From an uncultured Planctomycetota bacterium (lineage in GTDB: Bacteria; Planctomycetota; Planctomycetia; Isosphaerales; Isosphaeraceae), in contig CAWJTV010000028.1 in the NCBI GenBank assembly GCA_963845755.1, positions 32,001 through 96,000 of the forward strand: a stretch of 64,000 nucleotides of DNA, written 5' to 3'. This document shows, in pieces, positions 1,470 to 52,600 of the stretch. The notes below the pieces were generated by a model, which saw nothing but the letters and a program-made list of their open reading frames with translations, searched no databases and was not told the DNA's origin. The stretch's first letter is position 1; the number at the start of each line of letters is the position of its first letter. Position numbers and translations under genes: made by a program.

Positions 1470-2859
1470 TCAGCCTGCGCCCAGGCCGGCCAGCTTGATC
1501 AGGAGGACGATCGCGACCGTGTAGAAGATCACCAGCCCGGTGGCGTCAACCAGCGTGCTGATGAGCGGCGCGGAGACGACGGCCGGGTCGATGCCGAACC
1601 GTTCGGCCAGGAGCGGGACCAGGGCACCGACACCGTTGGCCCAGACACAAATGCCGATGATCGCCAGCGCGATGACCGCGCCAAAGGTCTTGGAGTGGCC
1701 GAGCAACAGCCAGACAAACGCGAAGCCGAGCGCCACCGAGCAGGGTGCCCAGTAACAAGCCGGTGAGGACTTCACGCACCAGGACCCGGAGGGTGTCGCC
1801 GCGATGGATCTCGCCCAGGGCCAGGCCCCGGATGATCGTGCCGACGGCCTGGCTGCCGGCATTGCCACCGGTCCCGATCAACAGCGGAATGAACGTGTCG
1901 AACTCGATGGTGGGAAAGCGGTCATCGACCCAGTTGAACACGTGGATGATGTAGCGGGTAATGGCCCCGCCGACGAACAGGAGCAACAACCAGCCGATCC
2001 GCCGCCGGACGGACTCGTGGATCCGCCCTTCCCAGTACGTCTCCTCGTTGGCCTCGGCATCGCGCGAGACGCCGCCGAAGGCCAGGATGTCCTCGGTCTG
2101 CTCCTGGCGGAGGATGTCCATCGCGTCGTCGTGGGTGATGATCCCCAGCAGCCCGTCCGCGCCGTCGACGACGGGGATCGCGATCAGGTCGTACTTGTCG
2201 ATCTGCCGGGCGACGGTCTCCTGGTCCTCATCCACGCGCGCGAAGATGACGTCGCGCTGCATGATTTCTTCGATGACGGCCGAGCGCCGCGATAAGATGA
2301 GCCGCTTGAGTGAGACGAAGCCGATCAGCCGGCGATTGTGGTCGATGACATAGCAATAGTAGATCGTCTCGCGGTCGGGCGCCTCGTGCCGGAGCCGATC
2401 GATGGCCTCGCGCACGGTGATATGGGAAGGAAGCGTCACGTAGTCGGTCGTCATGACGGCGCCGGCCGTACCGGGTTCGTAGCTGGCCAGTCGGCGGATG
2501 TCCTCGCGCTCCGCCTGGGCGAGGTAGGGCAGTACCGGGTCGAGTACCTCCTCGTCGAGCCGGTTGACCAGGTCGGCGCGTTCGTCGTGCGACATCACGT
2601 GGAGGAGTTCGGCCGCCTCCTGGGCCGGCATCATCTCGACGAGCTTGACCTGACGTTCCTTCTCCAGGTAGCTGAGGACCTGGGCCCGGTCGCGGGGCAG
2701 GAGGATGCGAAACAAGGTCTCGCCATCCCCGTCCTCCAGATCTTCCATCAGCTCGGCGACGCGACCAGGATGATAGTCTTCGAGGAAGTCGCGCAGGCCC
2801 GCGACCTCCCCGTCGTGGATCAACTCGCGCAGGTCAGGGATCAGGAGCGGATGTCGCAT
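1470..2859 (-). CDS. mgtE: Magnesium transporter MgtE (frameshift near 1733)
   Basis: N-domain, CBS pair (TAGAVMTTDYV, ETIYYCYV), GTGGNAGSQ, and C-terminal DPAVVSAPLISTLVDATG in the adjacent frame. Confidence 0.93.
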
Positions 2860-2867
2860 GGGGAAAC

Positions 2868-2974
2868 GATGAGAGATGAAGGATGAAGGATGAAAAACGC
2901 CGCGTCGGGCACTGGCTTAGCCGGCAATCCTATTGATTTCTGACTCATCCTTCATCCGTCATCCTTCATCCTTC
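2868..2974. repeat. Inverted heptamer repeat tracts (GATGAAG)n ... (TCATCCT)n
   Basis: gatgagagatgaaggatgaaggatgaa pairs with tcatccttcatccgtcatccttcatcc, forming a long hairpin between serS and mgtE. Confidence 0.75.
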
Positions 2975-4273
2975 CGGAACGCGCAGCCTTCCGAGGACGT
3001 CCTTCCCGACGAACGGCCGCAAGACTTCGGGGACGTCGATCAATCCGTCGGACCGCTGGTAGTTCTCCAGGATCACGATGAGCGCCCGGCTGATGGCGAC
3101 CGCCGTGCCGTTCAGGGTGTGAACGAATCGCGTCCCTTTCTGTCCCGCGGGCCGGTAGCGGATATTCAGACGACGGGCCTGGTAATCGGTGCAGTCCGAC
3201 GTGCTGGTCACCTCGCCGTATTCACCACCCGCGCCGCGACCGGGCATCCAGGCTTCGAGGTCGTACTTCCGGTAAGCCGGCCCGCCCAGGTCGCCCGAGC
3301 AGATGTCGAGCACGCGATACGGAATTCCCAGCGCCTGGAAGAGCTCTTCCTCGATCGCCAGCATCTCGGCGTGCAGGGCGCCGGAGGATTCGGGAGTGGT
3401 GAAGGCGAACATCTCGACCTTGGTGAACTGGTGGACGCGATAGAGCCCCCGGCTGGCGCGGCCGGCGGCGCCGGCCTCGGTCCGGAAGCAATGAGACAGG
3501 CCGACGTAGCGGATCGGCAGCGCGGCGCCGTCAAGGATCTCGTCGGCGAGCATCCCTCCGAGCGTGATCTCGGCGGTGCCGACCAGGCTGAGATCGGTAT
3601 CCTCGACGGAGTAGACCTGGGTCTCGGCCCCGCGTGGCGTGAACCCGATCCCCTCGAGGATCTGGTTGCGGGCCAGGTCGGGCGTGGTGATGGGCGTGAA
3701 GCCGTGGCCGATGAGCCGCTTGACGGCGAACTGCTGGAGCGCCAGGTCCAGCAAGACTGCATCGTTCTTGAGGAAGTAAAAACCGGTCCCGCTGACCTTG
3801 CCGCCCGTCTCGAAGTCGATGAGGTCGAGGTCCTTGCCGAGTGCGACGTGGTCCCTCGGCTTGAAGTCGAACGCGCGGGGAGTGCCGACCTTGCGGATCT
3901 CGCGGCTCTGGTCCTCCGTCTGGCCGATGGGGGCCTCCGGGTGGGTCAGGTTGGGGATGCGCTTCAGCCGCTGGGTCAGCTCGGCCTCGAGCCGGCGGAG
4001 CCGCTCCTCCTCGTCGGCGACCGCCGACTTGAGCCGCTTACCCTCGTCGATCAGCGCGGACCGCTTCTCGGCGTCGCGCTCGCGGCCGGTGGCCTGGGCG
4101 ACCTCGTTCTGCCGGCGCCGAACCTCCTCGACCCCCTGGAGCAGGCCCCGACGCTCGGATTCGAGCTGGACGACCAGGTCGACATCCTCGATCACGTCGG
4201 GCGAGACGTTGCGGTCCCGGCAATTCTGCTTGACCGCGTCGGCGTTCGCGACGACGTACTTCAGGTCCAACAT
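2966..4273 (-). CDS. serS: Serine--tRNA ligase
   Basis: MLDLK N-terminus, coiled-coil arm, GTAE, FRTEAG, RGLYRVHQFTKVE, HTLNGT motifs. Confidence 0.98.
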   Translation of the reverse strand: MLDLKYVVANADAVKQNCRDRNVSPDVIEDVDLVVQLESERRGLLQGVEEVRRRQNEVAQATGRERDAEKRSALIDEGKRLKSAVADEEERLRRLEAELTQRLKRIPNLTHPEAPIGQTEDQSREIRKVGTPRAFDFKPRDHVALGKDLDLIDFETGGKVSGTGFYFLKNDAVLLDLALQQFAVKRLIGHGFTPITTPDLARNQILEGIGFTPRGAETQVYSVEDTDLSLVGTAEITLGGMLADEILDGAALPIRYVGLSHCFRTEAGAAGRASRGLYRVHQFTKVEMFAFTTPESSGALHAEMLAIEEELFQALGIPYRVLDICSGDLGGPAYRKYDLEAWMPGRGAGGEYGEVTSTSDCTDYQARRLNIRYRPAGQKGTRFVHTLNGTAVAISRALIVILENYQRSDGLIDVPEVLRPFVGKDVLGRLRVPEG

Positions 4274-40192: not shown

Positions 40193-41350
40193 ATGCGAGT
40201 CGAGACCAGTCGGACGGCCGAAACGCAAGGCGTTGGCAGCGATTCGGGTACGATCACGGCTCCAAACCGGGGTGAAGAGAGCGAGCACGTCGTGATCGGC
40301 CGTCTCATTCGCCGACTCCGGATTTCGGACCCGCCAGATCGCTTCCAGGAACTGGCGACGACGGTATTGCGCTCGTCCCTGGGCGTGATGGCGGTGGCCT
40401 GGGTCCCCCGAGATCCCCACGAGCCGGTGATTGTCGGCGGATCGGTGGAGGGGCTGGACGCTCCGGCGTATCGGCTGGTGCCCGCGCCGACCGGCCGAGA
40501 GACGATCGTGGTTCACAACGAGATCGCGACCGGCCCATCGCGGTCGATCCACCCCAACATCGTCCGCTATGCCGCCGTCTCGGCCGGCGCGCTCGGTTGC
40601 TTGATCGCGGTCAATCCGCTCGACGACCGGCCGTTCCACCAGGACGAGGCCGAGCGCCTTCAGTATGTCGCCTCGTTGATCGAGACCCAGCTCGCCAACG
40701 CGAAGATTTATGGCGATCTCAAGGAGTTGCTTTTCGGGATCATCCGGGCCCTCACCGCCGCCATCGATGCCAAGGATCCCTACACGTCGGGCCATTCCGA
40801 GCGCGTGGCTCGGATCGCCGTCCGCCTGGCCGAGGAGCTCCGGATGCCGTCGCCGAAGCGGAGCGATCTCTATGTCGCCGGACTCCTCCACGACGTGGGC
40901 AAGATCGGCATCGAGGACGACGTCTTGAAGAAGGGCGGCCCGCTCACCCAGGACGAATTCCGCAAGATCCAATCGCACGTCGAGATCGGGGTGACGATCC
41001 TCAAGGACCTCAAGAAGCTGCACCACATCCTGCCCGGAGTCCGCCACCATCACGAGAGTTACGACGGCAACGGATACCCGGACCGCCTGGCCGGTGATTC
41101 GATCCCGTACGAGGCCCGGATCCTGGCCGTCGCCGATTCCTATGACGCGATGTCCAGCAATCGACCTTATCGCCGACGCTTGAGCCTCATGCAAATCGAC
41201 GAGATCTTCCGCAAGGGGCGTGGGCAGCAATGGGACCCCGCGGTCGTCGACGCCCTCTTCGCCTGCCGGCGCGACCTCGAGGCCATCCGGCAGAAGGGAC
41301 TGGGTGAGAGCCTCATCGGAGCGGTCAACGTCGCTCTCGGTCGAACTTGA
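40193..41350 (+). CDS. HD-GYP domain phosphodiesterase with GAF-like N-terminus
   Basis: DAKDPYTSGHSERV, LHDVGKIG, HHESYDGNGYP, ILAVADSYDAM. Confidence 0.93.
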   Translation: MRVETSRTAETQGVGSDSGTITAPNRGEESEHVVIGRLIRRLRISDPPDRFQELATTVLRSSLGVMAVAWVPRDPHEPVIVGGSVEGLDAPAYRLVPAPTGRETIVVHNEIATGPSRSIHPNIVRYAAVSAGALGCLIAVNPLDDRPFHQDEAERLQYVASLIETQLANAKIYGDLKELLFGIIRALTAAIDAKDPYTSGHSERVARIAVRLAEELRMPSPKRSDLYVAGLLHDVGKIGIEDDVLKKGGPLTQDEFRKIQSHVEIGVTILKDLKKLHHILPGVRHHHESYDGNGYPDRLAGDSIPYEARILAVADSYDAMSSNRPYRRRLSLMQIDEIFRKGRGQQWDPAVVDALFACRRDLEAIRQKGLGESLIGAVNVALGRT

Positions 41351-41376: not shown

Positions 41377-41852
41377 TCACTTCATCGCGCGTATAATCGG
41401 TCGGCTCGAGGAACACCGACTCCACCTGCTTGACCAGTTTCCCGTTCTTGTGGCTTTCCGCGTAGACCTTCTGCCACTCAGGGTCCTTCCCGAACGCTTC
41501 CCACGTCTTCTTGGCGGCCTCGCGACTGGGAAACGCGACCAGGTAGATCAGCTTCGCGCCCTTGCCGTCCTTCTCATCCGTGGGGGTCCAGAACCCGATT
41601 AGCTCCGCGCCGTGCTTCTTGAGCAACTGGCAGGTATGGTCGCGGAATCGCTTGTGCAGGTCGGTCAACTTGCCTTCGTTGAGGTGGTAGGTCCGAAGTT
41701 CGAAGACGCGTCTTGCGCCGGTGGAATCCTGCCCGCCGCAGCACGTGCACGCCTTTTCCTTGGCCGTCGGGGACTTGGCGGGATTTGTCGTCGGCACGAG
41801 CCGGCACCATGCAAGCCACCAGCACTAAGCCCGTCATCATGTGGCGAATCAT
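41377..41852 (-). CDS. Exported NIPSNAP family protein (frameshifts near 41785 and 41388)
   Basis: Signal peptide ..VPARA|DD; VFELRTY, GKL..LHKRFRDHT, LIYL, F.KDPEW, FLEPTDY. Confidence 0.85.
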
Positions 41853-42027
41853 GGGTGCGATGCTCCGTGTGATTGTGTCGGCAGTTTGACCAAGAACCGA
41901 TCTCGTTTCGGTTATAACGCCTCGTGAGATGCTGCTCAAGCGCCGGGTAATTCGTAGGGATAACGGGATGACGTCACTAAACCCATACACTCTGACACGC
42001 GGCTCCCGTGGATTTCGGTTCTCGAAG

Positions 42028-43536
42028 TCATGCAGTTGGCGAGGGCTGGTCGAGTTCGACGACCGAGAGCTGCGAAGATTTACTCTCTCGAATCCCGCAT
42101 CGACTCGTCGTTTGGTTGTCCAGGACGGAGGGGCCGGGAGCGCGGATTGCGTGACTCGCCGAAGATTCTGACCAGCGCCAGCGTTTTATCTTGGAGAGCG
42201 GGCGCGTTTCCATGATCTCAACGAGGTCACCGTAACGCGATAGGTTCCGCTCGTCATGAGCGTAGCAGATCGTCCGCCTCCGGATCATCTTGCCGTACTT
42301 CGGGTGAGGCTCGATTCCCACGACCTCGACCCGGCGCGTCTTGTCCATCTTCGCGCTGGTGACGAGCCCCTGGAGGACGCGACGCGGCTTGCGGCCGCGG
42401 GCGGGCGATTCCCGATTCGCGTCGGGGAAGCCGGGGATTTCGGGAAACGGCGTGAGTGGTTCGTGCTCCGTTGCTTTTTGAGGCGGAAGCCGCGGCGCGA
42501 GGTCGTGGTCCGGCTCGGAGAGGGCCAGCTTGAAGGAGGAGTAGTCGAGGCGGTTGGCGATGGTCCGCAGACGATCGCGGAATTCGGTGGCACGCTCCAG
42601 GTTACCGCACACAATCCGGTCTTTCGCCCTGACGACGCGTGCCATCGACGCCGATTCGATGAATTCGTTCAAGCGGGAATAGAGGATCGAAAACCCTTCC
42701 GTGAAGAGCGGTCCCTCCAGCCTCTCGACTCTCAAGAACTGGGCGAGGGCCTCCGGCCGTCTTGATCTCCGGGCGAGGTTCTCGCCGAAGATGATCGCCG
42801 CGTCCGGGAATTCGGGGAATCGCGCCGCGAACGACTCAGCCCACGGGTTGACGCGGTTGTTGGCACCGAGGCTCAAGAGGCCATAACCGCCGGCCGCGAC
42901 GGCAATCGAGTCGTCAAGGTCCCGGAACAGTGCGAGATTCTCGGCCTGGATCAGCAGTTGATCCGCCTCCTCCAATTGACCCGACTTCAAGTACCGAAAC
43001 GCCATGCCGGCCGAGAGCGACTCGCGAGCGAGAGACGCGAGCGAGGAGGATGAAGACGAGGAGTCGCCTCGGGCGAATGACGGGTCTGCGCGACCGAGGG
43101 GTTCGGAGGTCGCAAGTACCGAGAAATCGACGAGGCATTCCGCCTCGTGTTGGATCTTGCACGTCTTCGAGTACGCCTGGCCACCAGGCGGCCTGCTGGA
43201 GATGACGTAGTAGCCTGGTTGCAGGTCGAGCCGCCTGGAACCGATGACCCAGATCGAGGACGACTGGGCGTGGTCCCGGATCTGGATCGGGAATGGGCAC
43301 TCCTCGGCCCTGATCCAGAGCCGACCGGTCCCGCTCGCCGGTCGCTTTTTCGCGGCGGGGTCACGAGCAGGTTCGGGACCGGGGACATCCGCGGGAATGC
43401 CCAGCTCGTCCTCGATCCAATTGCTCAGGATGTCGGGGCCATCAGCAGGCTCTGGCCCGGCAACCTCCGCGGGCATGTCCGCCTCGTCCTCCTCTTCCTC
43501 CTCCTCTTCCTCCTCGATCCAGCCACTCATGCCCAT
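42028..43536 (-). CDS. Multidomain protein: acidic N-terminus, Ig-like segment, helical domain and a C-terminal ribosomal protein uS17 domain
   Basis: C-terminal RRVLQGLVTSAKMDKTRRVEV..HPKYGKMIRRRTICYAHDERN..GDLVEIMETRPLSKIKRW is S17-like; a probable 1 nt deletion near 42177 would give KRWRLVRI and a stop at 42080. Confidence 0.85.
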   Translation of the reverse strand: MGMSGWIEEEEEEEEEDEADMPAEVAGPEPADGPDILSNWIEDELGIPADVPGPEPARDPAAKKRPASGTGRLWIRAEECPFPIQIRDHAQSSSIWVIGSRRLDLQPGYYVISSRPPGGQAYSKTCKIQHEAECLVDFSVLATSEPLGRADPSFARGDSSSSSSSLASLARESLSAGMAFRYLKSGQLEEADQLLIQAENLALFRDLDDSIAVAAGGYGLLSLGANNRVNPWAESFAARFPEFPDAAIIFGENLARRSRRPEALAQFLRVERLEGPLFTEGFSILYSRLNEFIESASMARVVRAKDRIVCGNLERATEFRDRLRTIANRLDYSSFKLALSEPDHDLAPRLPPQKATEHEPLTPFPEIPGFPDANRESPARGRKPRRVLQGLVTSAKMDKTRRVEVVGIEPHPKYGKMIRRRTICYAHDERNLSRYGDLVEIMETRPLSKIKRWRWSESSASHAIRAPGPSVLDNQTTSRCGIRESKSSQLSVVELDQPSPTA

Positions 43537-43549
43537 TAGCGACCTCGAA

Positions 43550-44890
43550 TCACTCGAAGGGGACGAAGTGCAGGGTTTCGTTGCAATCCTTATCGGCCTC
43601 GATTGGGAGATAGATTTCCGTGTGGGGTGGGTCGGACGACGCCGAGTCAGCCGTGAACTTCAACCGGCATACGCCCGAGGGCGCGGAGGCCACCGGAAGG
43701 TACGGGGCCAGCTCTTTCTTCTGGTCGGCGGTCAGCGAGCTCACCGCGCCGTCGACGTCGAAACTCAGCGTGTAGGGTCCCGGCTGGACCGTGGAATCGT
43801 ATGGGTTGGCGGGGAGTGGGCTATCCAGGACGCTCTTCTTGTGTTTTAGGTTTCTCAACTTCGCATGGGCCACACGGATCACGAGAGTGGGGTCGATTTC
43901 GAGATGGAAGGGGATCTGGGGCGGACGGCTCGTATAGTGAAAGTTCGTCTTGAATAAGCACTTGGAAGTGTCGGCTTGGACGTACTGGACCTTCTTTTTG
44001 TAGTTCGCGATGTCCAGGGTCCTCCGCTGGAGCGGCTCGACGAGGTCCTTAACCGCAACGCTCCACCCATGAATGCCGTGTTCTCGAAGTGCGAACCGTC
44101 CCAGGCATTCCAGCAAGGCACGGCTGAACACCGTCCCAAACTCATCTCCTGTCTCGTAAGCCGGATCTCCATCGCGCGTGCTGTAGATCGTGCATCGATT
44201 GATGGGGTCGCGATACGTCTTCGACTCGTACACAATGATAGGGCGGCCACCCAGGACGTCAGGATTCTTGTACTTGGAGGGGATCGGCTCCGTCTTGCAA
44301 GCGTTGACGAACACAAACTGTTTGCGGGCGTCGGCGTAATCGAGGGCCTCGTGAATATTCCGAAGATCGAGAGAGCCGTCGAGGCACCGTTTCGTTTCGG
44401 CGAAGTCTTCCAGCAACACGCGAGTGATCTGGTGTCCATCGAGGATTCCGTGGCCGCTCACGTAGAGAATCGCAACATCGCGCGAGCGTCGGTTGCAATC
44501 GTCATACCAGGCTAACACGGTGCGCTCCACCTCTGGGAAAGTCGCGCGTTGAATCGTGCCAGTTTTGTCGTCGAAGTCCTCTTTCGCAAGGCCCAGGTTG
44601 ACCATCTCCTTCGGGGTCGGAGACAGGAGCAATCGGATGGAGGCCAGAGGGACAACCGGTTCCTCGCGGCGATCCAAGGACTCCTTGAGATACTCCTTGC
44701 GGAGCCAATCCGCGAATCGATAGGCGCCCGTGGCCGTCGAGGTGAGTTCATCGAGTCCGAAGGTCTCGTTCTTCGGATGATCTGGCGTGTCGCGGAGGTA
44801 GGGATAGTGGCTCGACCCAACGATGAGGGCGTGCGTCGCGCTCCCCTTCGAGCTCCGGTCGGGATTCCTGAACCACACCGCTTCGTTCAT
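43550..44890 (-). CDS. Caspase-like (C14 family) protease
   Basis: HALIVG..Y, ILYVSGHG (catalytic His), FVFVNACK (catalytic Cys), YST..G..A, FSRALL..L. Confidence 0.88.
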   Translation of the reverse strand: MNEAVWFRNPDRSSKGSATHALIVGSSHYPYLRDTPDHPKNETFGLDELTSTATGAYRFADWLRKEYLKESLDRREEPVVPLASIRLLLSPTPKEMVNLGLAKEDFDDKTGTIQRATFPEVERTVLAWYDDCNRRSRDVAILYVSGHGILDGHQITRVLLEDFAETKRCLDGSLDLRNIHEALDYADARKQFVFVNACKTEPIPSKYKNPDVLGGRPIIVYESKTYRDPINRCTIYSTRDGDPAYETGDEFGTVFSRALLECLGRFALREHGIHGWSVAVKDLVEPLQRRTLDIANYKKKVQYVQADTSKCLFKTNFHYTSRPPQIPFHLEIDPTLVIRVAHAKLRNLKHKKSVLDSPLPANPYDSTVQPGPYTLSFDVDGAVSSLTADQKKELAPYLPVASAPSGVCRLKFTADSASSDPPHTEIYLPIEADKDCNETLHFVPFE

Positions 44891-46281
44891 TCTGCTTTCT
44901 CCCGCAGCTCATCGGCGATCTTCTCGTAGAAGAACGACTCCGTGAAGTAGGCGGAGTGTGCCTTCAGGATGTCGTTCCGGCCCGGCATCCGGATGTCCGT
45001 GACCGCCTCGTTACCGAAGACGGGCTGAGCCTGGTATGAGAAGAGGTCGGCCTGGTCGTAGAAGTTGAGCCACTTCTGGACCTTCGCGGGCTTGAGCAGG
45101 AATCCGGCGGTGGGCTCGGCATTCTTGCGATAGACGGCCATCTCCGCGAAGAGCGAGACCTGGGCGCCGGCCATTACCCAGAGTCGGACGGAGATATCGC
45201 TGAGGTCGCTCGAGGTGAGAAGGTCGTAGAAGATCGCACTGCCGAAGGAGTGCGTCACGACCACGAGCGGTTCATTGTTTTTCTCGGCGACCTGCGCGGC
45301 GGCCTGGATGCCCTTGGCGGCGCGGTCGGCGATTGGTCCAAGTTTCTCACCGGTGCTCTGCCCGCGCCGGAGGTACTCGAACACGTCGCCGAAGAAGAGC
45401 ATCGCGCCGGGCCCCACCTCGTTGCGCAGCCAGGGGGCAAGTCGTGGATCGGAGGGGTTCAGGAGCGCCCCCGCTGAGTAGAGCCGGGCGCGGAATGCCC
45501 CCGCGCCGGCCTTCTCGGCAATATATCTCGCAGCCCCTACGGTGGCGTCCTTCAGCGCGTGCAGTCTCTCGGAGGCCTCCTTGATGATCTCCTTTGCTCC
45601 CATCTCGTCGTACGGCTTGCCATCGGCGACCGCTCCGGCGGATTCCTCATACGTGTTTAACTCGTCCACGATGGCCTGATCGATGGCGTCGAGGGCGGCT
45701 TTCCCTGTCTTCGACGTCTTCAACTTTGCGAGGAACTCGGGCCGTTGCGCCACGGCATCGGCGGCGATCAGCAGAAGGGCGCTGACCTGGCCCTTCTGCT
45801 CAGCAGCTTGCCGATCGTCCACCTTCATGTCCTTCGTCTCGGCGACGGTCCGCAAGTCCGGTTCGAAGCGACATCGCTCGGGGGCCACCACGGCCCGGAT
45901 CAAGTCCACGGGGGCTTCTCGGGCCGCCTTGAGTACGACCTGATCGTGTGTCTCCGGTAATGTCTCCGGGTCCGGCTCGGTTCCGTCCTTCGACAGGATC
46001 GAGATCAACTCGAAGAGTGCGGCAGCGGGATCGGTCGTTTCGACGTGGCCCGTTGCTCCCATTGCCTTGGCTTTCTCCAGGCCGAACATCGAGGAGAGAT
46101 CCCAGCGAAAGCGGACACCCAGATCACCCCAATAAAGGTCCTCCAGGACATCGAAGTTTGGATAGCGGGGCTTGGTCACGGGGAGCACGTACTGCTCGAA
46201 CATCTTCCTCCGCGCCTTGCCGCTAGCGAAGTAAACCTCGTCCTTGCGGACGCTCACTCCGTGGATGAATAAGATTGGCAT
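44887..46281 (-). CDS. Alpha/beta-hydrolase (lipase-like) with a large helical insertion
   Basis: ILFIHG, YWGD, VVVTHSFG (nucleophile), WLNFYD..D, AHSAYF; GGAGG RBS; ATGA overlap with the caspase gene. Confidence 0.85.
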   Translation of the reverse strand: MPILFIHGVSVRKDEVYFASGKARRKMFEQYVLPVTKPRYPNFDVLEDLYWGDLGVRFRWDLSSMFGLEKAKAMGATGHVETTDPAAALFELISILSKDGTEPDPETLPETHDQVVLKAAREAPVDLIRAVVAPERCRFEPDLRTVAETKDMKVDDRQAAEQKGQVSALLLIAADAVAQRPEFLAKLKTSKTGKAALDAIDQAIVDELNTYEESAGAVADGKPYDEMGAKEIIKEASERLHALKDATVGAARYIAEKAGAGAFRARLYSAGALLNPSDPRLAPWLRNEVGPGAMLFFGDVFEYLRRGQSTGEKLGPIADRAAKGIQAAAQVAEKNNEPLVVVTHSFGSAIFYDLLTSSDLSDISVRLWVMAGAQVSLFAEMAVYRKNAEPTAGFLLKPAKVQKWLNFYDQADLFSYQAQPVFGNEAVTDIRMPGRNDILKAHSAYFTESFFYEKIADELREKAE

Positions 46282-46625
46282 TGTCGGGCACCTCCAGCGA
46301 ATGCCTCAAGGTGGGCAGGCAAGGCCGGCCTGCACTCAACTGACCTGGCACGCGTCGGCGACATCGCCTGTCCATTTGTATGGGCGTCTGGCGTATTCAC
46401 CGCCGAGCGCCGATCGCCCCACCCTTCATCTGTCAGAATGGACGATAATTGAACCGGATTCAAGAGGCCTCTCCAACTGCGCAGCGAGATCCCGAGCGCA
46501 CCGACGCCTTGAGCATTGCGGAGCGCTTCCGCCATGCAGCGACCGTCGTGGTTCCCTGGTGTCGATTCACCGGCTGGTCCATCCGATGGCCCTCGGACCA
46601 GCCGGGCGAATCACTCCGACCCCGT

Positions 46626-49600
46626 TCAACGGAACCCACCAGCCGCGGCACCATTCCGATTGCCGGCCGGTTGATCGAACCGTTGCTGGAGCCGCTGGAT
46701 CTGCTTCAAGTTATTGGTCGAGTTCTGCATGCGGAGATTGGCATCGAGGGATTCATCCGCTTTGGCTGAAGCATTGGGCATGGTCTGTCCCTGCCCTGGT
46801 TGCTGAGCCGGCACTTGATTCTGACCCTGCAGCGATTGGCCGACGTAGCTCGTGCCGCGGTAGAAGGCGTATTGATTCGACCCTCGGCGCGCGACGGCCG
46901 TGACGACTCCGCGCACTCCTTCGGCCACGAAGATGCCCCGAAGGTCGGTCTCGCCCGAGAGGAACTGGGGATTATCGCTCCCGATGACTTTCACCTGGAC
47001 TTTCGGCAGGAGGTCCTTGGTCGATGCATCGCGGACCGTCACACGAACTCGGCCGGCGCCCGAGTCTTCGAGTACCTCGAGTTCGATCGGTGAGACCAGG
47101 ACGATCCCGGATGCGTAGAGACTCTCGCCGCGAAGCATGACGAGATACGCCGCCGTCCTTGGTCAAGGGAAGGTCGATTGCCTTGGCCTTGTCACCATAG
47201 TCGGCTCCATTGCCGAGGGTCACGGCTTTCTCGACCAGCGGCGTGATGCCCGCGAGGTCAATGCCGGCGATCCCGTTCAAGTTGCGGCGGGTGAGGTAGA
47301 GCTGCATCAGGTTGACGGGATAGGCTTTCACGTCCACCTGGGCGATATTGCGATAATCCAGGGCGATGCCCGGCGAAGGGCCCGGATCGGGGGCTCGATC
47401 GGCGGCGACCGCCGCACCCCTGAGGCTGGCGACAAGGACGCCGCGGACGGGGGTTGCGGGTTCGGTCCGCTCGGCGACCGCGGGACGGACCGCGGACCGG
47501 ACGACGGAGACCTCGGGAAGCTTCAGGTCCTTGCGGGTGTACGAGGTGATGGCGCCCGCCGCGTCGGTGAAGCGGTCGGCAACCTGCCGGTAGTATTCCA
47601 GCGCCTTGGCCGGCTGACGGCGCGCATCGTAGATCTGGCCAAGGATATAGAGGGCCTGCCACTTGTTCGGGCTGGGTTGCTCGGCACCCGCGGCGTCCTT
47701 GTAAGTCGCCCTGGCGATGGTGCCGGCCACCTCGACCGCGCGGTCATAATGGCCGAGATGGAAGTCGCCCAACGCCTCGCTGTACTGGAAGCTGTCGAGG
47801 TACGTGCTCTTGGGATAAACCGTGGCGAACCGGCCGGCCAGGCGGACCACCGACTTGAAGTCTTCCAGCTCGATGAACGCGCCGACCAGGGCCAGGCTGG
47901 CCTCGTCGGCCATGGGGTTCCTGGGCGATTGCGCGAGGAAGACCTGGATCATTCGAATGGATTGCACCAGCAACTCCGAGCGAGTGATCCCGGCGGCGGC
48001 CAGCTCGCGACGGAGATTGGGCTCGGTGATCGCACGTGACGCCGCCTGGGTCAGGACCTGGGAGAGTCCGAAGAAATCGCTCTCGATTGACGCCGTGTTC
48101 GGATAGGACCGCCACAGGTCGATCAGATAGGCCATCCCCTCGAGCGTCTTTCCCCGCTGGCGCAGCAGCTCGCCCACCCGAACATCCTCCAGGTAGCTGG
48201 CCTCGATCAGCCCGCGCCAGACGATCATGGCGCGCTCGAATTCCTTGATGTCCCGATAGGCGGTGCCGATCGCCAGCAACTGGTCGAAGCTGAGGAACAG
48301 CTCGGGGGATTTCTCCTTGACTACCTCGAAATACTGGACGATCTTGCGTGGCTGGCCCGCGCGGATGCTGATCAAGAGGAGCATCCGGGCCGCGTCCTTC
48401 GCGATGTCATCGCGGAGGGTATAGCCACCATAAAGCGACTCGAGGGCATCGCCGGCCTCGGCGAACCGTCCGGCGTCGAAGTGCGCCTTGCCTCGAGCAT
48501 ATAACTCGTCGGGCGTCGGCTTGTAGGGATCGGTGCTCGCTTGGCCGGGAGACCGGACACGCAGCTCGCCGGGCTGGCCGATGTGATAGTGCCCCGGCTC
48601 GTAGGCACTGCGCACCGAGGCGGGCAGGCGCGGTACGTGCCGGGAAGATACCCGTAAAGGTCGTAGGTGGTTGTCCCGGGGTTGACATCGGGCGGGAAGT
48701 AGAGGGTCAGCACGCCGTCGGCCAGCTCGAAGGAGGAAGCCGATGTATTCACGGAACCCTCGATCAAGGTCGTGCCGGCAGGCAAGTGTTCCTGCACCAC
48801 GAGGTAGTCGCGCTCCCACTCGGGAACGTTCCAGGGGATGTTCCGGAATGCGGTGACGGCAATCTGGGCTCTTCCGCCCACACCGACCTGGCTGGCGATG
48901 TTCTCGAATGTGTTGGGATTGACCGCGACCCCGAAGCCGACCGGCAAGACCTTGCCATCGAGCTCCGGCGGCGCTGGATAATAGACGCGGCGATCGATCC
49001 ACGCCACACGGCCGTTGCGATCCTGGTCGGGAGCGAATTCACGAGTAAATCCGGCGAGCGTGACGGCATATCCGAACTCGCCGCGGCCTTCCATCTCGAA
49101 TCGGATGCGGTTGGGCTTTCCGACCTCCAGGTTGGTGCGTGGGACGGCGACGACCTTTTCCTGGGCGGTTCCCAGCACGTCGATCACCGTGAGCGGCTTG
49201 TCATTGACGGTCACAGTCAGGCGATAACGATCCTCGGCGCCCTCGGCGCGGCCGTAATACGTCGCCAGCGCGGTGAGTGCCGGCCCCTTGGCCTTGTGGG
49301 GGAGCCACCCATTCGCGACACGGTGAGCCTGGAGCCAGTCGATGCTCCGGTCCATCTCGTTGGCCTGGGGGCGGACCCGGGCGTAAGCCAGGCTGACGAG
49401 GGCCGTCGTTTCGGCGGTACCACGGACCATCGGAGATCGGCCGGGGGCTTCCCAGTAGATCCGGGGCCTCAGGCCGGGCGCGACGGTTTCCGTCTTGGCA
49501 CGCGGTCCCAGGATGTCCAGCAGCTCGCCGGCCATCGAGGCACGGTCCAGGTTGGCGAAGGTCAACGCCAGGTACGCCAGGGCCGGGCTCGACAGGTTGT

Positions 49601-52600
49601 TCCGGAGCCGGTTCAAGCTGTTGGCCGCCTCGAAGCTGGCCGCGCGTCGCGTGCTCAAGGCGTGCAGCAACGCGGCACGGGTCTCGAGATCGCTGCCGTT
49701 GACCCGGGCGAATTCCTGCTTGAGATAAGTCAGCGCCTGGTCGAGCACCTTGGGATCGGTCAAGAGTCCCAGCGGCTCGGCCGAGGCCAGCGCCAGACGA
49801 CCGCCGCGGAGGACAGCCGGTCGCTCTGTAGCGACTGATCCGGTCGATTCACGATCGAGAGCGGCGGAGGGGCGGCCACCCACGGCCAACCGCCGTCGGG
49901 ATTCTGGGCCGCGATCAATTCGGCGACCAATCCCTGGATCCGTTCGGTCAGGCGCTGGGCTTCCGGTGCTGCAGTGGCGCGGGCATCGTGGAGATAGCGC
50001 AAGACCGAGGTCGCCCCCACCAGGTCCGCGGCACGATCCGCCGTGGTGTTGCTCGGCGGCGGGATGACCCGCGCCGTGGCGTTCAAGCTGTGCTCATCGA
50101 TGTTGATCAGGAGCTGATAGAGATTGGCGTCGCGTCCTAACGCCATCTCGATCAACATTCGGCGAATCGTCGGAGAGAGCGCAATCAGCATGTCGGGATT
50201 TTCATACGTCCGACCCGCCGGCAGTCCGACGAAGACGGTCGTGCTCTCGCGGCCGGTCCCCGATGCCGAGGCGTAAACCGGCATGCCCCAGGGATGGATC
50301 GGGACCTCGACGACCAGCTCATCCTTCAGGTCGCCGACGGCGCCGGTGAGGGTCAATCGAAGCGTATCACCATCGGGCACTTCATACGGTTCGAACAGGA
50401 CCTCGTCGATTCCGTCGCCCTTGAGTTCGAGCATCCTGGGAAACACGTCGTCGCGGCCACCGGCGTAAGTCGCCAGGCGCAGCGCGAGCTGGCCCTTGAC
50501 GCCCGTATGGTGGACTTGCGCGATGAAACGCGGCTTGTCCCCCTGAGTCAGCGCGGTGGGAACCTTCAAGTCAACGAAGAAGTCCTGGCGGACCGTCAGG
50601 GACGATGTGGTTTGCCCGGCCAGGGTGTCGGCGCCGGTGATGCCTCGCGCCGTGATCCGGTACTCGGAGAGTGCATTGGGGGCCTGGAACGTGACCCGCG
50701 CCTTGCCGTCCTTGCCGGTGACAACAGCCGGGTTCCAGTAGGCCGATTCCACGTATCGCTCGCGCGGGGATCGAGGATCGTCCGGTTTCTGGACGGCGAA
50801 GGTGGAGCGACGCCCTTGCGAGCGATCCCGGGAAAGATCATTGAAGTTTCTCGCAAATTGGACCCCAGCGAGTTTCTGCGCTCTGATTGTCACCCAGGCC
50901 TTCTTGATCGACGGCGAGAGGAACGCTCTTTGTCGCATCCTCACCGCTCATGGCCCTGCCGCCGACCCCGCCGCCCATTCCTCCCATCATGCCCATGCGC
51001 GGGTGCAGGCGAATTTCCAGGAACCGGAGCAGCCTCGGCGGGCGTCGGCGCAGGGGCTAGGGGCGCTGGGGCGACCTCATTGAAGAACCCCTGTCTCCCG
51101 CCCGCAGCGAAGTACTGCCGTCGTGCGCCCGCATTGGCCACCCTGGCTTGCTCACGCGCTGATTCCTCGACAACCGCCTGTGACACACCGACTGTGTCCG
51201 GCCGATAAGCGAACGTGTTCGTCGCCTCGGTGGAGAAGGATCCGGTACGGGTCTGGCTGTAGAAGAACGGACCGATCTCCGGGAGCCGGTCGTGGAAGAG
51301 GCGCAGGAGCGACTGGTCGACCATCGCGATCGAGAGCTCGGCCGAGACGGGCTGGCCGAGCTGGTCGGCGGCCGTGATGTCCAGCTCGACCGGCTCGCCC
51401 GGCCTCACGACCGCCCTGGCTGGCTTGACGGTGACGCGGAGGTCGCGCACGACCTCGATGTCGAGCCTCGCTTGATCGCACTCGTTATGCCACATTCGCG
51501 TCGAGGTCAGCGTGAAGTTGGGGAACTGGGCGCCGTCGATCGGCCAGGCGAGCGGGTTATCACCGTCCTTGAGAGTCACGATGCGGTAGGAGAGGATGCG
51601 GTCGGCCTCCCAGGTCAGGAGCGCCGTGCCGGACCGCCCGCGGCTGTGCAGGTTGACGCGCGCCTCCTCACCCACCTTGTAGCTTTGACGGTCGGTCAGG
51701 AGCCGCAGCTTGGTCTCGTCCTCCTTGCCGGAGATGAAGATCAATCGATCGGCGACGATCGGGGTGCCGAACCGGTCGGTCCCCGCGACGCGGAGGATGT
51801 AATGGCCTCCCTCGGAATCGTCGGAGCGGAAGGTCAGAGAGCCGCGGCCGGTCTTGGGGTCGGTCGCAATGGTCTTGCTCGTGACGTCGCGCTCGGTGGT
51901 GCGTCCGTCGACGTTGACCTGCTTGATCAACGTGGCCGAGAGGGACTCGCCGATCGGGCTGCCCTGGGCGTCTGTCGTGACGATCTGGAGCAGGAACGAT
52001 TCGCCGTCGAGGTAAACGCCGCGGGGCGTGCTCACGCTGATCTCGAATCCGCGGATTGCAAGCCGCACGTGGGCCTCGGCGGCCACGTTATCCTGCGGCA
52101 GCCGGGCGGTGAGGTGCAAGGTTTGCTCCTCGGCGAATCCCTCGGTCGAGAATTCGACGTGATACTTACCCACCGCGTCGGTCGTGCCGTGCAGTGTGCG
52201 GCCGTCGGGGAGGCCGATCTCGATCGGCCGAGATGACAGCGGTGCGCCGTATTGATAGCGAGCGACGAGGTCAACCTGGACCGTCTCGCCGCGGTAGACC
52301 ACACTCTGCTTCACGTCGAAGGTCAGGTCGATCGGTTCGAGCTGGTACGACTGGACCTCGAAGCTCCCCGAGAAGACGCTCTTGCCCGGCTGCGATACCG
52401 TGACGCGGTAACTGCCCAGCGGGGCGGCCGTGTCGAGCGGAAGCGTTTCGTGGAACGTCCCGTATTCCGAGAGGGTGATCGACCGGGCCACGATTATCCG
52501 GCCGCGGCTGTCGGCGACCTCGAACCGATAGACGGCCTTCGGCATATTGGCATACTGGCTGTTCCGGATCTCCCGCACGACGCCGCGGACCGAGACTTTC

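Follow-up and report, generated by a model that had tools for sequence, protein, structure and literature searches.

What a ribosomal protein domain is doing at the end of a gene cluster that otherwise encodes a lipase-like hydrolase and a caspase-like protease is the question raised by a locus in an uncultured Planctomycetota bacterium of the family Isosphaeraceae. The window, meaning the whole stretch of DNA that was analysed, comprises 64,000 nucleotides of contig CAWJTV010000028.1 (contig C28 in this study) and belongs to a 14.3 Mb genome assembled into 49 contigs with a completeness of 87.9%. The cluster consists of three genes, here numbered 1 (alpha/beta-hydrolase), 2 (C14 caspase-like protease) and 3 (a Y4kD-type protein ending in a domain of ribosomal protein S17). 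The chances are slightly better than even that they form a horizontally acquired cassette in which the caspase gates a hydrolase zymogen and the Y4kD-type protein supplies the input. The hydrolase-caspase core of such a cassette is known; S17 in the variable position of the third protein is rare and, in the literature searched, undescribed.

The three genes are arranged head to tail on the same (minus) strand. Direct reading of the sequence showed that genes 1 and 2 share four nucleotides in an ATGA stop/start overlap at 44887-44890 and that genes 2 and 3 are separated by a 13-nucleotide spacer with GAGG ahead of the ATG at 43536, so that the description in an earlier note on this DNA of three co-oriented, tightly coupled genes holds in all its open reading frame (ORF) coordinates. 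The same note placed the genes as an insertion between unrelated genes, and this could be sharpened to a clean indel, as both flanks are found ~110 bp apart in a genome of the same genus (G020) compared with 4,683 bp (41943-46625) in the window. On one side the insertion is flanked by kinase, HD-GYP and NIPSNAP genes and on the other by an A2M-family gene. When the ends of 41943-46625 were searched for terminal direct or inverted repeats or a target-site duplication none were found, and promoter and terminator scans of the locus gave no more than chance level; a sigma-70-like site was not found in the leader at 46282-46625, the sigma-70 model saying little for this organism.

The gene neighbourhood was followed by a scan of one genome per species, in which the hydrolase had 226 relatives. 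The 80 best of these 226 loci were retained, and they come from Acidobacteriota, Pseudomonadota, Actinomycetota, Cyanobacteriota, Planctomycetota, Bacteroidota and further groups. A caspase match (tblastn with the window protein as query) begins at most 400 nucleotides downstream of the hydrolase gene in 78 of the 80 loci; L051 and L057 are unmatched with this query, and L094 has its match divided between two frames. A third ORF, mostly overlapping the caspase stop codon, is callable in 73 loci, and in four more the contig ends first. Among these 73 third ORFs, 69 contain a constant module over ~200-280 residues, as defined by an iterated profile (A2) seeded with residues 1-384 of the window's third protein. 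The trio is thus co-conserved across phyla, which was the check that the earlier note had proposed. The four exceptions have a caspase of 850-1245 amino acids fused to TPR arrays or to a STAND NTPase with TPR, and both TPR arrays and STAND NTPases are classical sensor modules. Six actinobacterial loci (L061, L074, L077, L078, L089 and L093) carry a fourth, WD40-rich gene product of 957-1144 amino acids, which suggests a four-gene form of the cassette in Actinomycetota. In a Paraburkholderia locus (L032, 8336-14832) two tandem caspase-TPR genes follow one hydrolase gene.

In the family of the host the cassette is scarce. With the hydrolase profile (E <= 1e-10) only three out of 100 other family genomes gave a match, in each case to the C-terminal part only, and the organism's own genome holds one copy of the hydrolase and one of the constant module. 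Relatives were found on 19 plasmids, eight of them conjugative and five mobilizable. The conjugative symbiosis plasmid pNGR234a (L147) has the full trio, annotated as hypothetical protein, caspase family protein and hypothetical protein, and the third of these, at the Y4kD position, matches profile A2 at a probability of 100%. Among 50,697 phage records no relative of the hydrolase was found. Immediately upstream of the trio in pNGR234a (2599-3054) lie a gene for a RES-family NAD+ phosphorylase and an IS21 element; a RES domain is also fused in the variable position of another module protein, P0083.

The protein of gene 1 has no family match in Pfam, NCBIfam or PADLOC, and a sequence search of solved structures found no relative. 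A word-index search gave 51 proteins, mostly full-length and 26-55% identical, of which P0002 is the best relative (55%). In an alignment of 39 sequences of this hydrolase family (A1) the candidate catalytic residues Ser345, Asp409/Asp412 and His442 are invariant or nearly so, in agreement with the earlier view that the Ser-Asp-His candidates are intact. The AlphaFold2 model (predicted local distance difference test, pLDDT, 85.5; predicted template-modelling score, pTM, 0.88) consists of a strand-helix core split by a long helical insertion of ~260 residues (roughly 68-335), and the weak Foldseek matches that it gives are headed by LipA of B. subtilis, which is a minimal lipase, by the Nir2 DDHD domain and by acyl-protein thioesterase 1 (APT1). 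Gene 1 is presumed to encode a zymogen. The weakest loops of the model are found at 70-82 and 268-274, and residues 210-230 have a pLDDT of 64-70.

Three short islands with the sequence [Leu/Met]-Gly occur at fixed places in the hydrolase family, set in parts that are otherwise variable and modelled with low confidence. The first, Met74-Gly75, falls in the lowest-confidence loop of the model (70-82), the second is situated at 108/109 in the numbering of the window protein (Gly in 25 of 31 A1 rows) and the third is Met227-Gly228. A motif derived for these sites, [VLIMAT]-[EQD]-x-[LM]-G, is found 2.0 times per hydrolase compared with 0.27 in shuffles, and is not enriched in caspases (0.35 vs 0.21 shuffled) or third proteins (0.26 vs 0.31 shuffled). 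By analogy with the hydrolase of Lysobacter capsici described below, the islands may be the sites that the caspase cuts.

Gene 2 matches PF00656 (Peptidase_C14) with 33.8 bits against a cut-off of 21.4, and His147, Gly148 and Cys198 are invariant in an alignment of 65 caspase sequences (A4), so that the earlier assignment to a C14 caspase-like protease with an intact His-Cys dyad stands. Among solved structures the closest in sequence is the MALT1 paracaspase, with a weak match. The NCBIfam model NF047832 ('caspase, EACC1-associated type') gives 33.4 bits where 140 is the cut-off, and in PADLOC-DB v2 (2023) gene 2 matches only the weak 'caspase' model (E 7.7e-4). When the caspase was modelled in complex with residues 60-384 of the third protein the prediction scored 0.79-0.82; as one control with an unrelated partner reached 0.63, this speaks neither for nor against binding.

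A pairing of this kind has been described before. In 2020 it was predicted that the caspase of VMAP systems always occurs with a neighbouring alpha/beta-hydrolase gene (Kaur et al., PMC7159879), and in Lysobacter capsici AZ78 LcCaspase is reported to cleave LcHydrolase after Arg73 and Arg117, whereupon the N-terminal piece and the C-terminal piece together kill E. coli and nucleic acids are not degraded (Evans et al. 2025, bioRxiv 2025.11.14.688446, PMC12642450). That the caspase unlocks the hydrolase, as the earlier note had proposed, has consequently been demonstrated by experiment for a comparable pair, according to that preprint. The claim that the system is novel could not be upheld, since by these accounts the pair was predicted in 2020 and tested in 2025 and since the module of the third protein is already the Pfam family Y4kD_C. 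The window cassette is a member of the broad class of caspase and alpha/beta-hydrolase protease-effector systems. As far as the published description goes, it shares with LcCaspase-LcHydrolase the adjacent genes, the His/Cys dyad, the Ser hydrolase core, short conserved sites in hydrolase loops, a similarly sized first fragment (73 residues in LcHydrolase, 74 in the window protein), a C-terminal catalytic part of ~180-240 residues and, at the level of the class, varied sensor-type partners (TPR, STAND, WD40). It differs in the length of the hydrolase (464 amino acids, where ~297 can be inferred from the published fragment sizes of LcHydrolase), in the piece between the candidate sites (~150 residues compared with 44) and in the addition of a separate third gene with the constant module. 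The window hydrolase is not filed in the narrow LcHydrolase family because its islands read [L/M]-G and not Arg-Gly.

For the product of gene 3 a precomputed annotation gives PF27295 and PF00366; PF27295 bears the name Y4kD_C in the protein cluster atlas, where its clusters are labelled 'hypothetical protein'. At E <= 0.001 the constant-module family comprises 3212 representative clusters, of which 954 remain at E <= 1e-30, and among solved structures searched by sequence none was found for it. The organisation of the protein is best seen in its closest homologue, P0052 (583 amino acids). Its model (pLDDT 77) begins with a disordered N-terminus and continues with a beta-sandwich at 89-155 and another beta domain at 185-274; a helical domain follows at 277-431, and beyond it a disordered linker leads into an OB fold (491-562). 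A VIA-align comparison of the whole 583-residue model tests mostly residues 258-436 and 488-569; in it the helical domain reaches Z 8-10 against TPR proteins, a value not above background for helical repeats. Between the window protein and P0052 the identity is 70% in S17, 57% in the TPR-like domain, 39% in beta-sandwich 1 and 26% in the linker. The match of the own genome to profile A2 spans positions 73-263 only, and the first part of the profile is likewise missing from other natural members, namely four Mesorhizobium loci, L081 and L089. An N-terminal extension is present in the window protein and in P0052 and is not found in P0206 (a further fusion, described below) or in other relatives. 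In the window gene a direct repeat of 58 nucleotides (43356-43413 and 43434-43491, 78% identity, 78 nucleotides apart) duplicates a Pro/Glu-rich peptide of this extension. The idea that the acidic extension masks the basic S17 domain was dropped as a general feature, as P0206 has the S17 domain and no extension.

The position behind the constant module is exchangeable, and the question whether S17 is replaced by other domains in homologues can be answered positively. Pfam domains were found there in 11 of the 69 genome loci: Hsp70 in L060 (819 bits), polyphosphate kinase in L092, family-2 glycosyltransferase (GT2) in L042 and L084, DUF4407 in L030 and L086, pentapeptide repeats in L026, LCM methyltransferase in L059, KTSC in L068, TPR_10 in L081 and, below the cut-off, RAMA in L049. 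In two of the 73 third ORFs (L042 and L092) a CATASP domain (CATRA-associated small protein) lies immediately behind the module. Tails of at least 60 amino acids are present in 36 of 70 module proteins (the 69 loci and the window) and fall into 22 BLAST clusters. A second scan targeted the 43 proteins of at least 500 amino acids among the top 150 of the 3212 representatives, of which 19 have Pfam matches and 24 have none; the matches are to the C-terminal domain of the RNA polymerase alpha subunit (alpha-CTD, three proteins), RAMA (six, one above the cut-off), Trypsin_2 (three) and, among others, RES, adenylate/guanylate cyclase, CHAT, a histone fold, HC2, DUF1822, pentapeptide repeats, LCM, an Ig-like domain, HHH and TPR. 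A word-index search for longer proteins with the module gave one match, in a list crowded by long proteins that gives no measure of fusion frequency. The atlas also holds a cluster of 617-residue proteins with pYEATS in 96% and Y4kD_C in 56% of its members.

That the window protein ends in an S17 domain, as the earlier note had read it, was established by PF00366 (Ribosomal_S17), which matches residues 390-454 with 84 bits against a cut-off of 25.9, together with NF004123 (86.6 against 74) and TIGR03635 (86.6, just below its cut-off of 88.7). The OB fold of the P0052 model agrees with this, its top Foldseek matches all being ribosomal S17 chains (E 1.6e-6 and weaker, 42-58% identity) with VIA-align Z values of up to 11.8. 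The genome holds two S17 matches, and the other is a 108-residue ORF on contig C33 between the genes of L29 (rpmC) and L14 (rplN); the S17 of the window is a fused paralogue outside the ribosomal operon and not the housekeeping rpsQ. Its core is 69% identical to the organism's own rpsQ product, the best value found, with 48-64% for other genomes. The fold and the charge are those of uS17 (Lys plus Arg 17-19 and Asp plus Glu 8-9 in the fused cores, 18 and 8 in rpsQ, 18 and 8 in the window core); the differences are that it is a second copy, that it is fused behind 384 residues of a non-ribosomal protein and that its tail is frame-shifted in this assembly. Among 100 other family genomes 95 match the third protein, all at the S17 end, and residues 1-310 are matched in none; in the phylum the corresponding number is 296 of 300, with two genomes besides this one showing two matches, in one of them on two short contigs.

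Two further fusions of module and S17 were identified, P0052 and P0206 (500 amino acids), the latter with a module match at an hhalign probability of 96.5% and 39% identity to the window protein. When the three fused cores and the genome's rpsQ were placed side by side, the fused cores were found to share residues that rpsQ lacks at those positions, and these shared residues point to a single origin of the three fusions. A metagenome scan with P0052 gave 37 loci and no further fused copy, P0052's own locus not being among them. L110, tried as a further fusion, proved to be an ordinary L16-L29-S17-L14 operon. Two other ORFs join S17 to different partners. P0204 (376 amino acids, from a metagenome) has S17 at its N-terminus (31-98, 97 bits) and a remainder of ~270 residues that Pfam leaves unmatched, and P0205 (331 amino acids), which starts with L16 and ends with S17 in one ORF, is most likely a run-on call across rplP-rpmC-rpsQ. 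In the article texts searched, as distinct from their supplements, no mention was found of an S17 fusion, of a function of PF27295/Y4kD or of S17 together with a caspase-like protein.

Two features of the window copy bear on its integrity. The in-frame reading leaves the S17 pattern from ~42175 and runs on to 42028, and the tail that matches P0052, P0206 and canonical S17 lies in another frame (Table 1). This frameshift is either real or an assembly error, an error being plausible in view of the neighbouring A2M-family gene, likewise split over frames, and of a completeness of 87.9% for only 49 contigs. The other feature is the poly-Ser linker in place of the second beta domain. As a check against reads, short contigs from three DNA runs of one study were compared with the window; the share per run is small (0.06-0.10), no RNA run was listed for this DNA, and the contigs do not reach the S17 part at 42000-42431, the greater part of gene 2 or either end of gene 1. 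Parts of genes 1-3 are matched exactly. Because this includes 42869-43143, without difference or gap, the junction at the missing beta domain is not an assembly fault of this record alone, although these contigs may come from the same sample.

Table 1. Features of the three-gene locus, in positions of the window
Feature	Position	Strand	Basis
Whole insertion relative to genome G020	41943..46625		flank comparison
Non-coding leader 5' of gene 1, inside the insertion	46282..46625	minus	sequence
Gene 1, alpha/beta-hydrolase, 464 aa	44887..46281	minus	ORF
His7-Gly8, HG motif of oxyanion-hole type just past strand 1	46258..46263	minus	38/38 occupied A1 rows
Met74-Gly75, [LM]-G island 1, candidate protease site	46057..46062	minus	G 38/39, L 32/39
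Met227-Gly228, [LM]-G island 3, candidate protease site	45598..45603	minus	G 39/39, L 28/39
Ser345, candidate nucleophile, in T-H-S-F-G	45247..45249	minus	39/39 in A1
Asp409 and Asp412, candidate catalytic acid	45046..45057	minus	D409 37/39, D412 39/39
His442, candidate catalytic base	44956..44958	minus	39/39 in A1
Gene 2, C14 caspase-like protease, 446 aa, C-terminal part beta-rich	43550..44890	minus	ORF, PF00656
His147-Gly148, catalytic His	44447..44452	minus	invariant in A4
Cys198, catalytic Cys	44297..44299	minus	invariant in A4
Gene 3 (in-frame reading), Y4kD-type protein with S17, 502 aa	42028..43536	minus	ORF, PF27295 and PF00366
Acidic, repeat-bearing N-terminal extension, residues 1-63, 22 D/E and 2 K/R	43348..43536	minus	composition
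Beta-sandwich 1, residues 64-146	43099..43347	minus	aligned to P0052 82-155; strands in AlphaFold2 model
Poly-Ser linker in place of beta domain 2	43018..43098	minus	alignment to P0052
Helical TPR-like domain, residues 174-340, conserved core of the constant module	42517..43017	minus	57% identical to P0052
Pro-rich linker, residues 341-384	42385..42516	minus	26% identical to P0052; model pLDDT <50
S17 core, residues 385-454, second diverged rpsQ copy	42175..42384	minus	PF00366, NCBIfam
S17 tail in another frame, stop at 42080-42082	42080..42174	minus	matches P0052, P0206 and canonical tails

In the A2M-family/TPR gene (46626-50944, minus strand) the coding sequence is broken up into four or more ORFs that overlap in different frames (49760-50944 with the A2M domain, 48372-49889, 46972-49002 with TPR and 46626-47138 with a weak bMG3 match), which points either to a pseudogene or to an assembly with frequent indel errors. 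The ORF with the NIPSNAP domain (67 bits, 41398-41797, minus strand) keeps an open frame over 539 codons, antisense to the HD-GYP gene (40193-41350); the true stop codon may have been lost to an indel, or the extension may be a chance run-on in G+C-rich DNA.

Two other published groups of systems resemble the cassette in its third component. CATRA systems are mentioned as caspase-dependent, with three components and a variable effector position holding glycosyltransferase or cyclase domains (PMC8195603, PMC12657218 and a 2026 preprint), and they have in common with the present loci, as far as these mentions go, the caspase, the three genes, a TPR-like domain, the occurrence of CATASP and a variable slot that in relatives of the window holds GT2 and Guanylate_cyc. 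The glycosyltransferase in print is GT4, compared with GT2 here, and S17 does not appear in those one-line mentions. It is a strong guess, the likeness being drawn through one-line mentions, that the Y4kD-type module is a CATRA component. In the EACC1-caspase systems a caspase and a constant partner are combined with a hypervariable region holding domains of the host machinery; these include EF-Tu, listed in a paper that also proposes decoy roles (Kaur et al. 2020, PMC7159879), and DnaK-like fusions next to sensor fusions with WD40 and STAND NTPase (Evans et al. 2025, PMC12642450). In these published accounts they are the closest precedent for a housekeeping protein in the slot. They differ, by the same accounts, in that the variable region is fused to the caspase, where it is a separate protein here, and in that the effector is a pore-former and not a hydrolase; no EACC1 protein family was reported among the genes neighbouring the window cassette.

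Taken together, the data are compatible with the following model. Gene 1 would encode a latent lipase- or esterase-like hydrolase, its Ser345-Asp-His442 core interrupted by the large helical insertion, and the caspase (His147/Cys198) would cut it in flexible loops at the [Leu/Met]-Gly islands, presumably at Met74-Gly75 and Met227-Gly228, the remaining island being degenerate here. The activated hydrolase would then kill or arrest the cell. The constant part of gene 3, i.e. the beta-sandwiches and the TPR-like domain, is proposed to work with the protease, and its exchangeable C-terminal domain would set the trigger of the system. In the present case S17, diverged yet strongly basic, may act as bait or as a mimic, and a factor with which an invader normally targets S17 or the 30S subunit would bind or modify it; alternatively it could be a sensor that binds RNA. 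The parts of this model are not equally firm. The cassette is very probably a conflict system, most likely directed against phages by abortive infection, and activation of the hydrolase by the caspase is probable; for gene 3 as input or adaptor the balance tips only just in favour, and bait or sensor as the role of S17 is put forward tentatively, at rather less than an even chance. Gene anatomy, catalytic residues, co-conservation, the exchangeable slot, the insertion and the second-copy status of S17 are observed in the sequences, whereas the cleavage sites, the role of gene 3, the bait function of S17 and the target of the hydrolase are inferred. The reading given in the earlier note is thus supported in part; its proposals that the third protein is a sensor, that S17 monitors ribosomes or baits a phage factor and that the hydrolase damages membranes stand as hypotheses. 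In plant nucleotide-binding leucine-rich-repeat receptors (NLRs) with integrated decoys, a copy of the host target is built into the immune receptor and reports attack. The likeness to the window cassette is one of logic, without homology. In an extended version the slots of Y4kD-type proteins would form a catalogue of host parts attacked by invaders (Hsp70, polyphosphate kinase, RNA polymerase alpha-CTD, histone-like proteins and S17), with S17 as an integrated decoy that, once captured or modified, releases the caspase and so unlocks the hydrolase, but this generalisation is doubtful.

Several observations weigh against the model. PADLOC-DB v2 finds no known anti-phage system at the locus, gasdermin-protease included, and leaves genes 1 and 3 unmatched. 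The likeness of the hydrolase to lipase folds is weak (Foldseek E 0.008-0.03; template-modelling score ~0.5 on the target). The window hydrolase and its four closest relatives lack the strict motif, islands 1 and 3 being reduced to [LM]-G, the window protein has L-P at island 2, and the sites of LcHydrolase are R-G where those here are [L/M]-G, the proteins being compared by published description only. Only three S17-fused sequences are known. In the window copy gene 3 lacks beta domain 2 (~110 residues), which its closest homologue has, and the last S17 strand is out of frame by one base, so that this copy may be impaired. Finally, several of the domains in the slot, namely RES, trypsin, CHAT, cyclase and glycosyltransferase, have enzymatic or toxic activity and fit an effector cargo better than a sensor.

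This last point leads to the view that the slot domain is a second effector or decoy cut loose by the caspase, with the hydrolase acting in parallel, which is how the Aravind group reads such positions; freed S17 would then soak up an invader factor or disturb 30S assembly. LCM belongs with the enzymatic and toxic slot domains listed above, the linker ahead of the slot domain is disordered, and comparable variable regions have been described as effectors released by proteolysis, or as decoys (Kaur et al. 2020, PMC7159879, as far as that account goes). However, the hydrolase motif is not enriched in third proteins, no conserved site stands out among the three S17 linkers, the loci that lack gene 3 have a caspase fused to sensor-type modules and the hydrolase already serves as the constant effector, and release of a cargo is considered fairly unlikely. 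A role in housekeeping or stress, in which proteolysis and lipid or ester hydrolysis would follow the condition of the ribosome (for instance free 16S rRNA, or 30S assembly that fails under stress or in development), has in its favour that the basic surface is preserved in this S17 copy, which is still 69-70% identical to real S17, and that other slots hold host machinery (Hsp70, polyphosphate kinase, RNA polymerase alpha-CTD), and a general stress role has been raised for DnaK-fused protease modules (Evans et al. 2025, PMC12642450, by its published description). Such a role predicts vertical conservation, whereas the distribution is patchy and mobile, with an indel within the genus, no match in most of the family and copies on plasmids, and a hypervariable slot is typical of conflict systems, making this explanation quite improbable.

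The remaining alternatives concern the state of the window copy itself. It may have been acquired intact and since been damaged in gene 3, leaving the locus inactive or constitutively silent; in favour of decay, beta domain 2 is deleted and the last strand of S17 is shifted, and P0052 and P0206 have both the domain and an in-frame tail. Against this, no invariant residue is missing from genes 1 and 2, which are intact, other natural members lack the first part of the profile as well, and the frameshift may not be real, as the split A2M gene and the completeness of 87.9% fit assembly indels; decay is held to be unlikely. The fusion could also be an artefact, either a misassembly or an ORF running on over two genes, given that long ORFs arise easily in G+C-rich DNA and that P0205 is an example running from L16 to S17. 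The same architecture is, however, present in two sequences from other sources, parts of genes 1-3 are matched exactly by the short contigs, and both flanks are syntenic in G020. Furthermore, there is no in-frame ATG, GTG or TTG between the constant module and a Met within the S17 core, so that a separate S17 gene has no start codon available, and an artefact is most improbable.

The favoured reading thus remains that of a caspase-gated hydrolase with a Y4kD-type input protein, and since the core of the cassette is already known, the value of the finding lies in the third gene. The cassette is widespread, with its 3212 module clusters and 226 hydrolase relatives, yet the third protein has a Pfam name without a function. 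Its slot repeatedly holds pieces of the central host machinery, among which a ribosomal protein is rare (three sequences). If the slot domains are baits, each would name the host target of an invader, and the S17 version would point to the small ribosomal subunit. If the integrated decoy is real, it would imply an undescribed phage strategy against S17 or the 5' domain of 16S rRNA, the bait could be used to fish out the factor responsible, and the S17 decoy would be a bacterial counterpart of the integrated decoys of plant NLRs.

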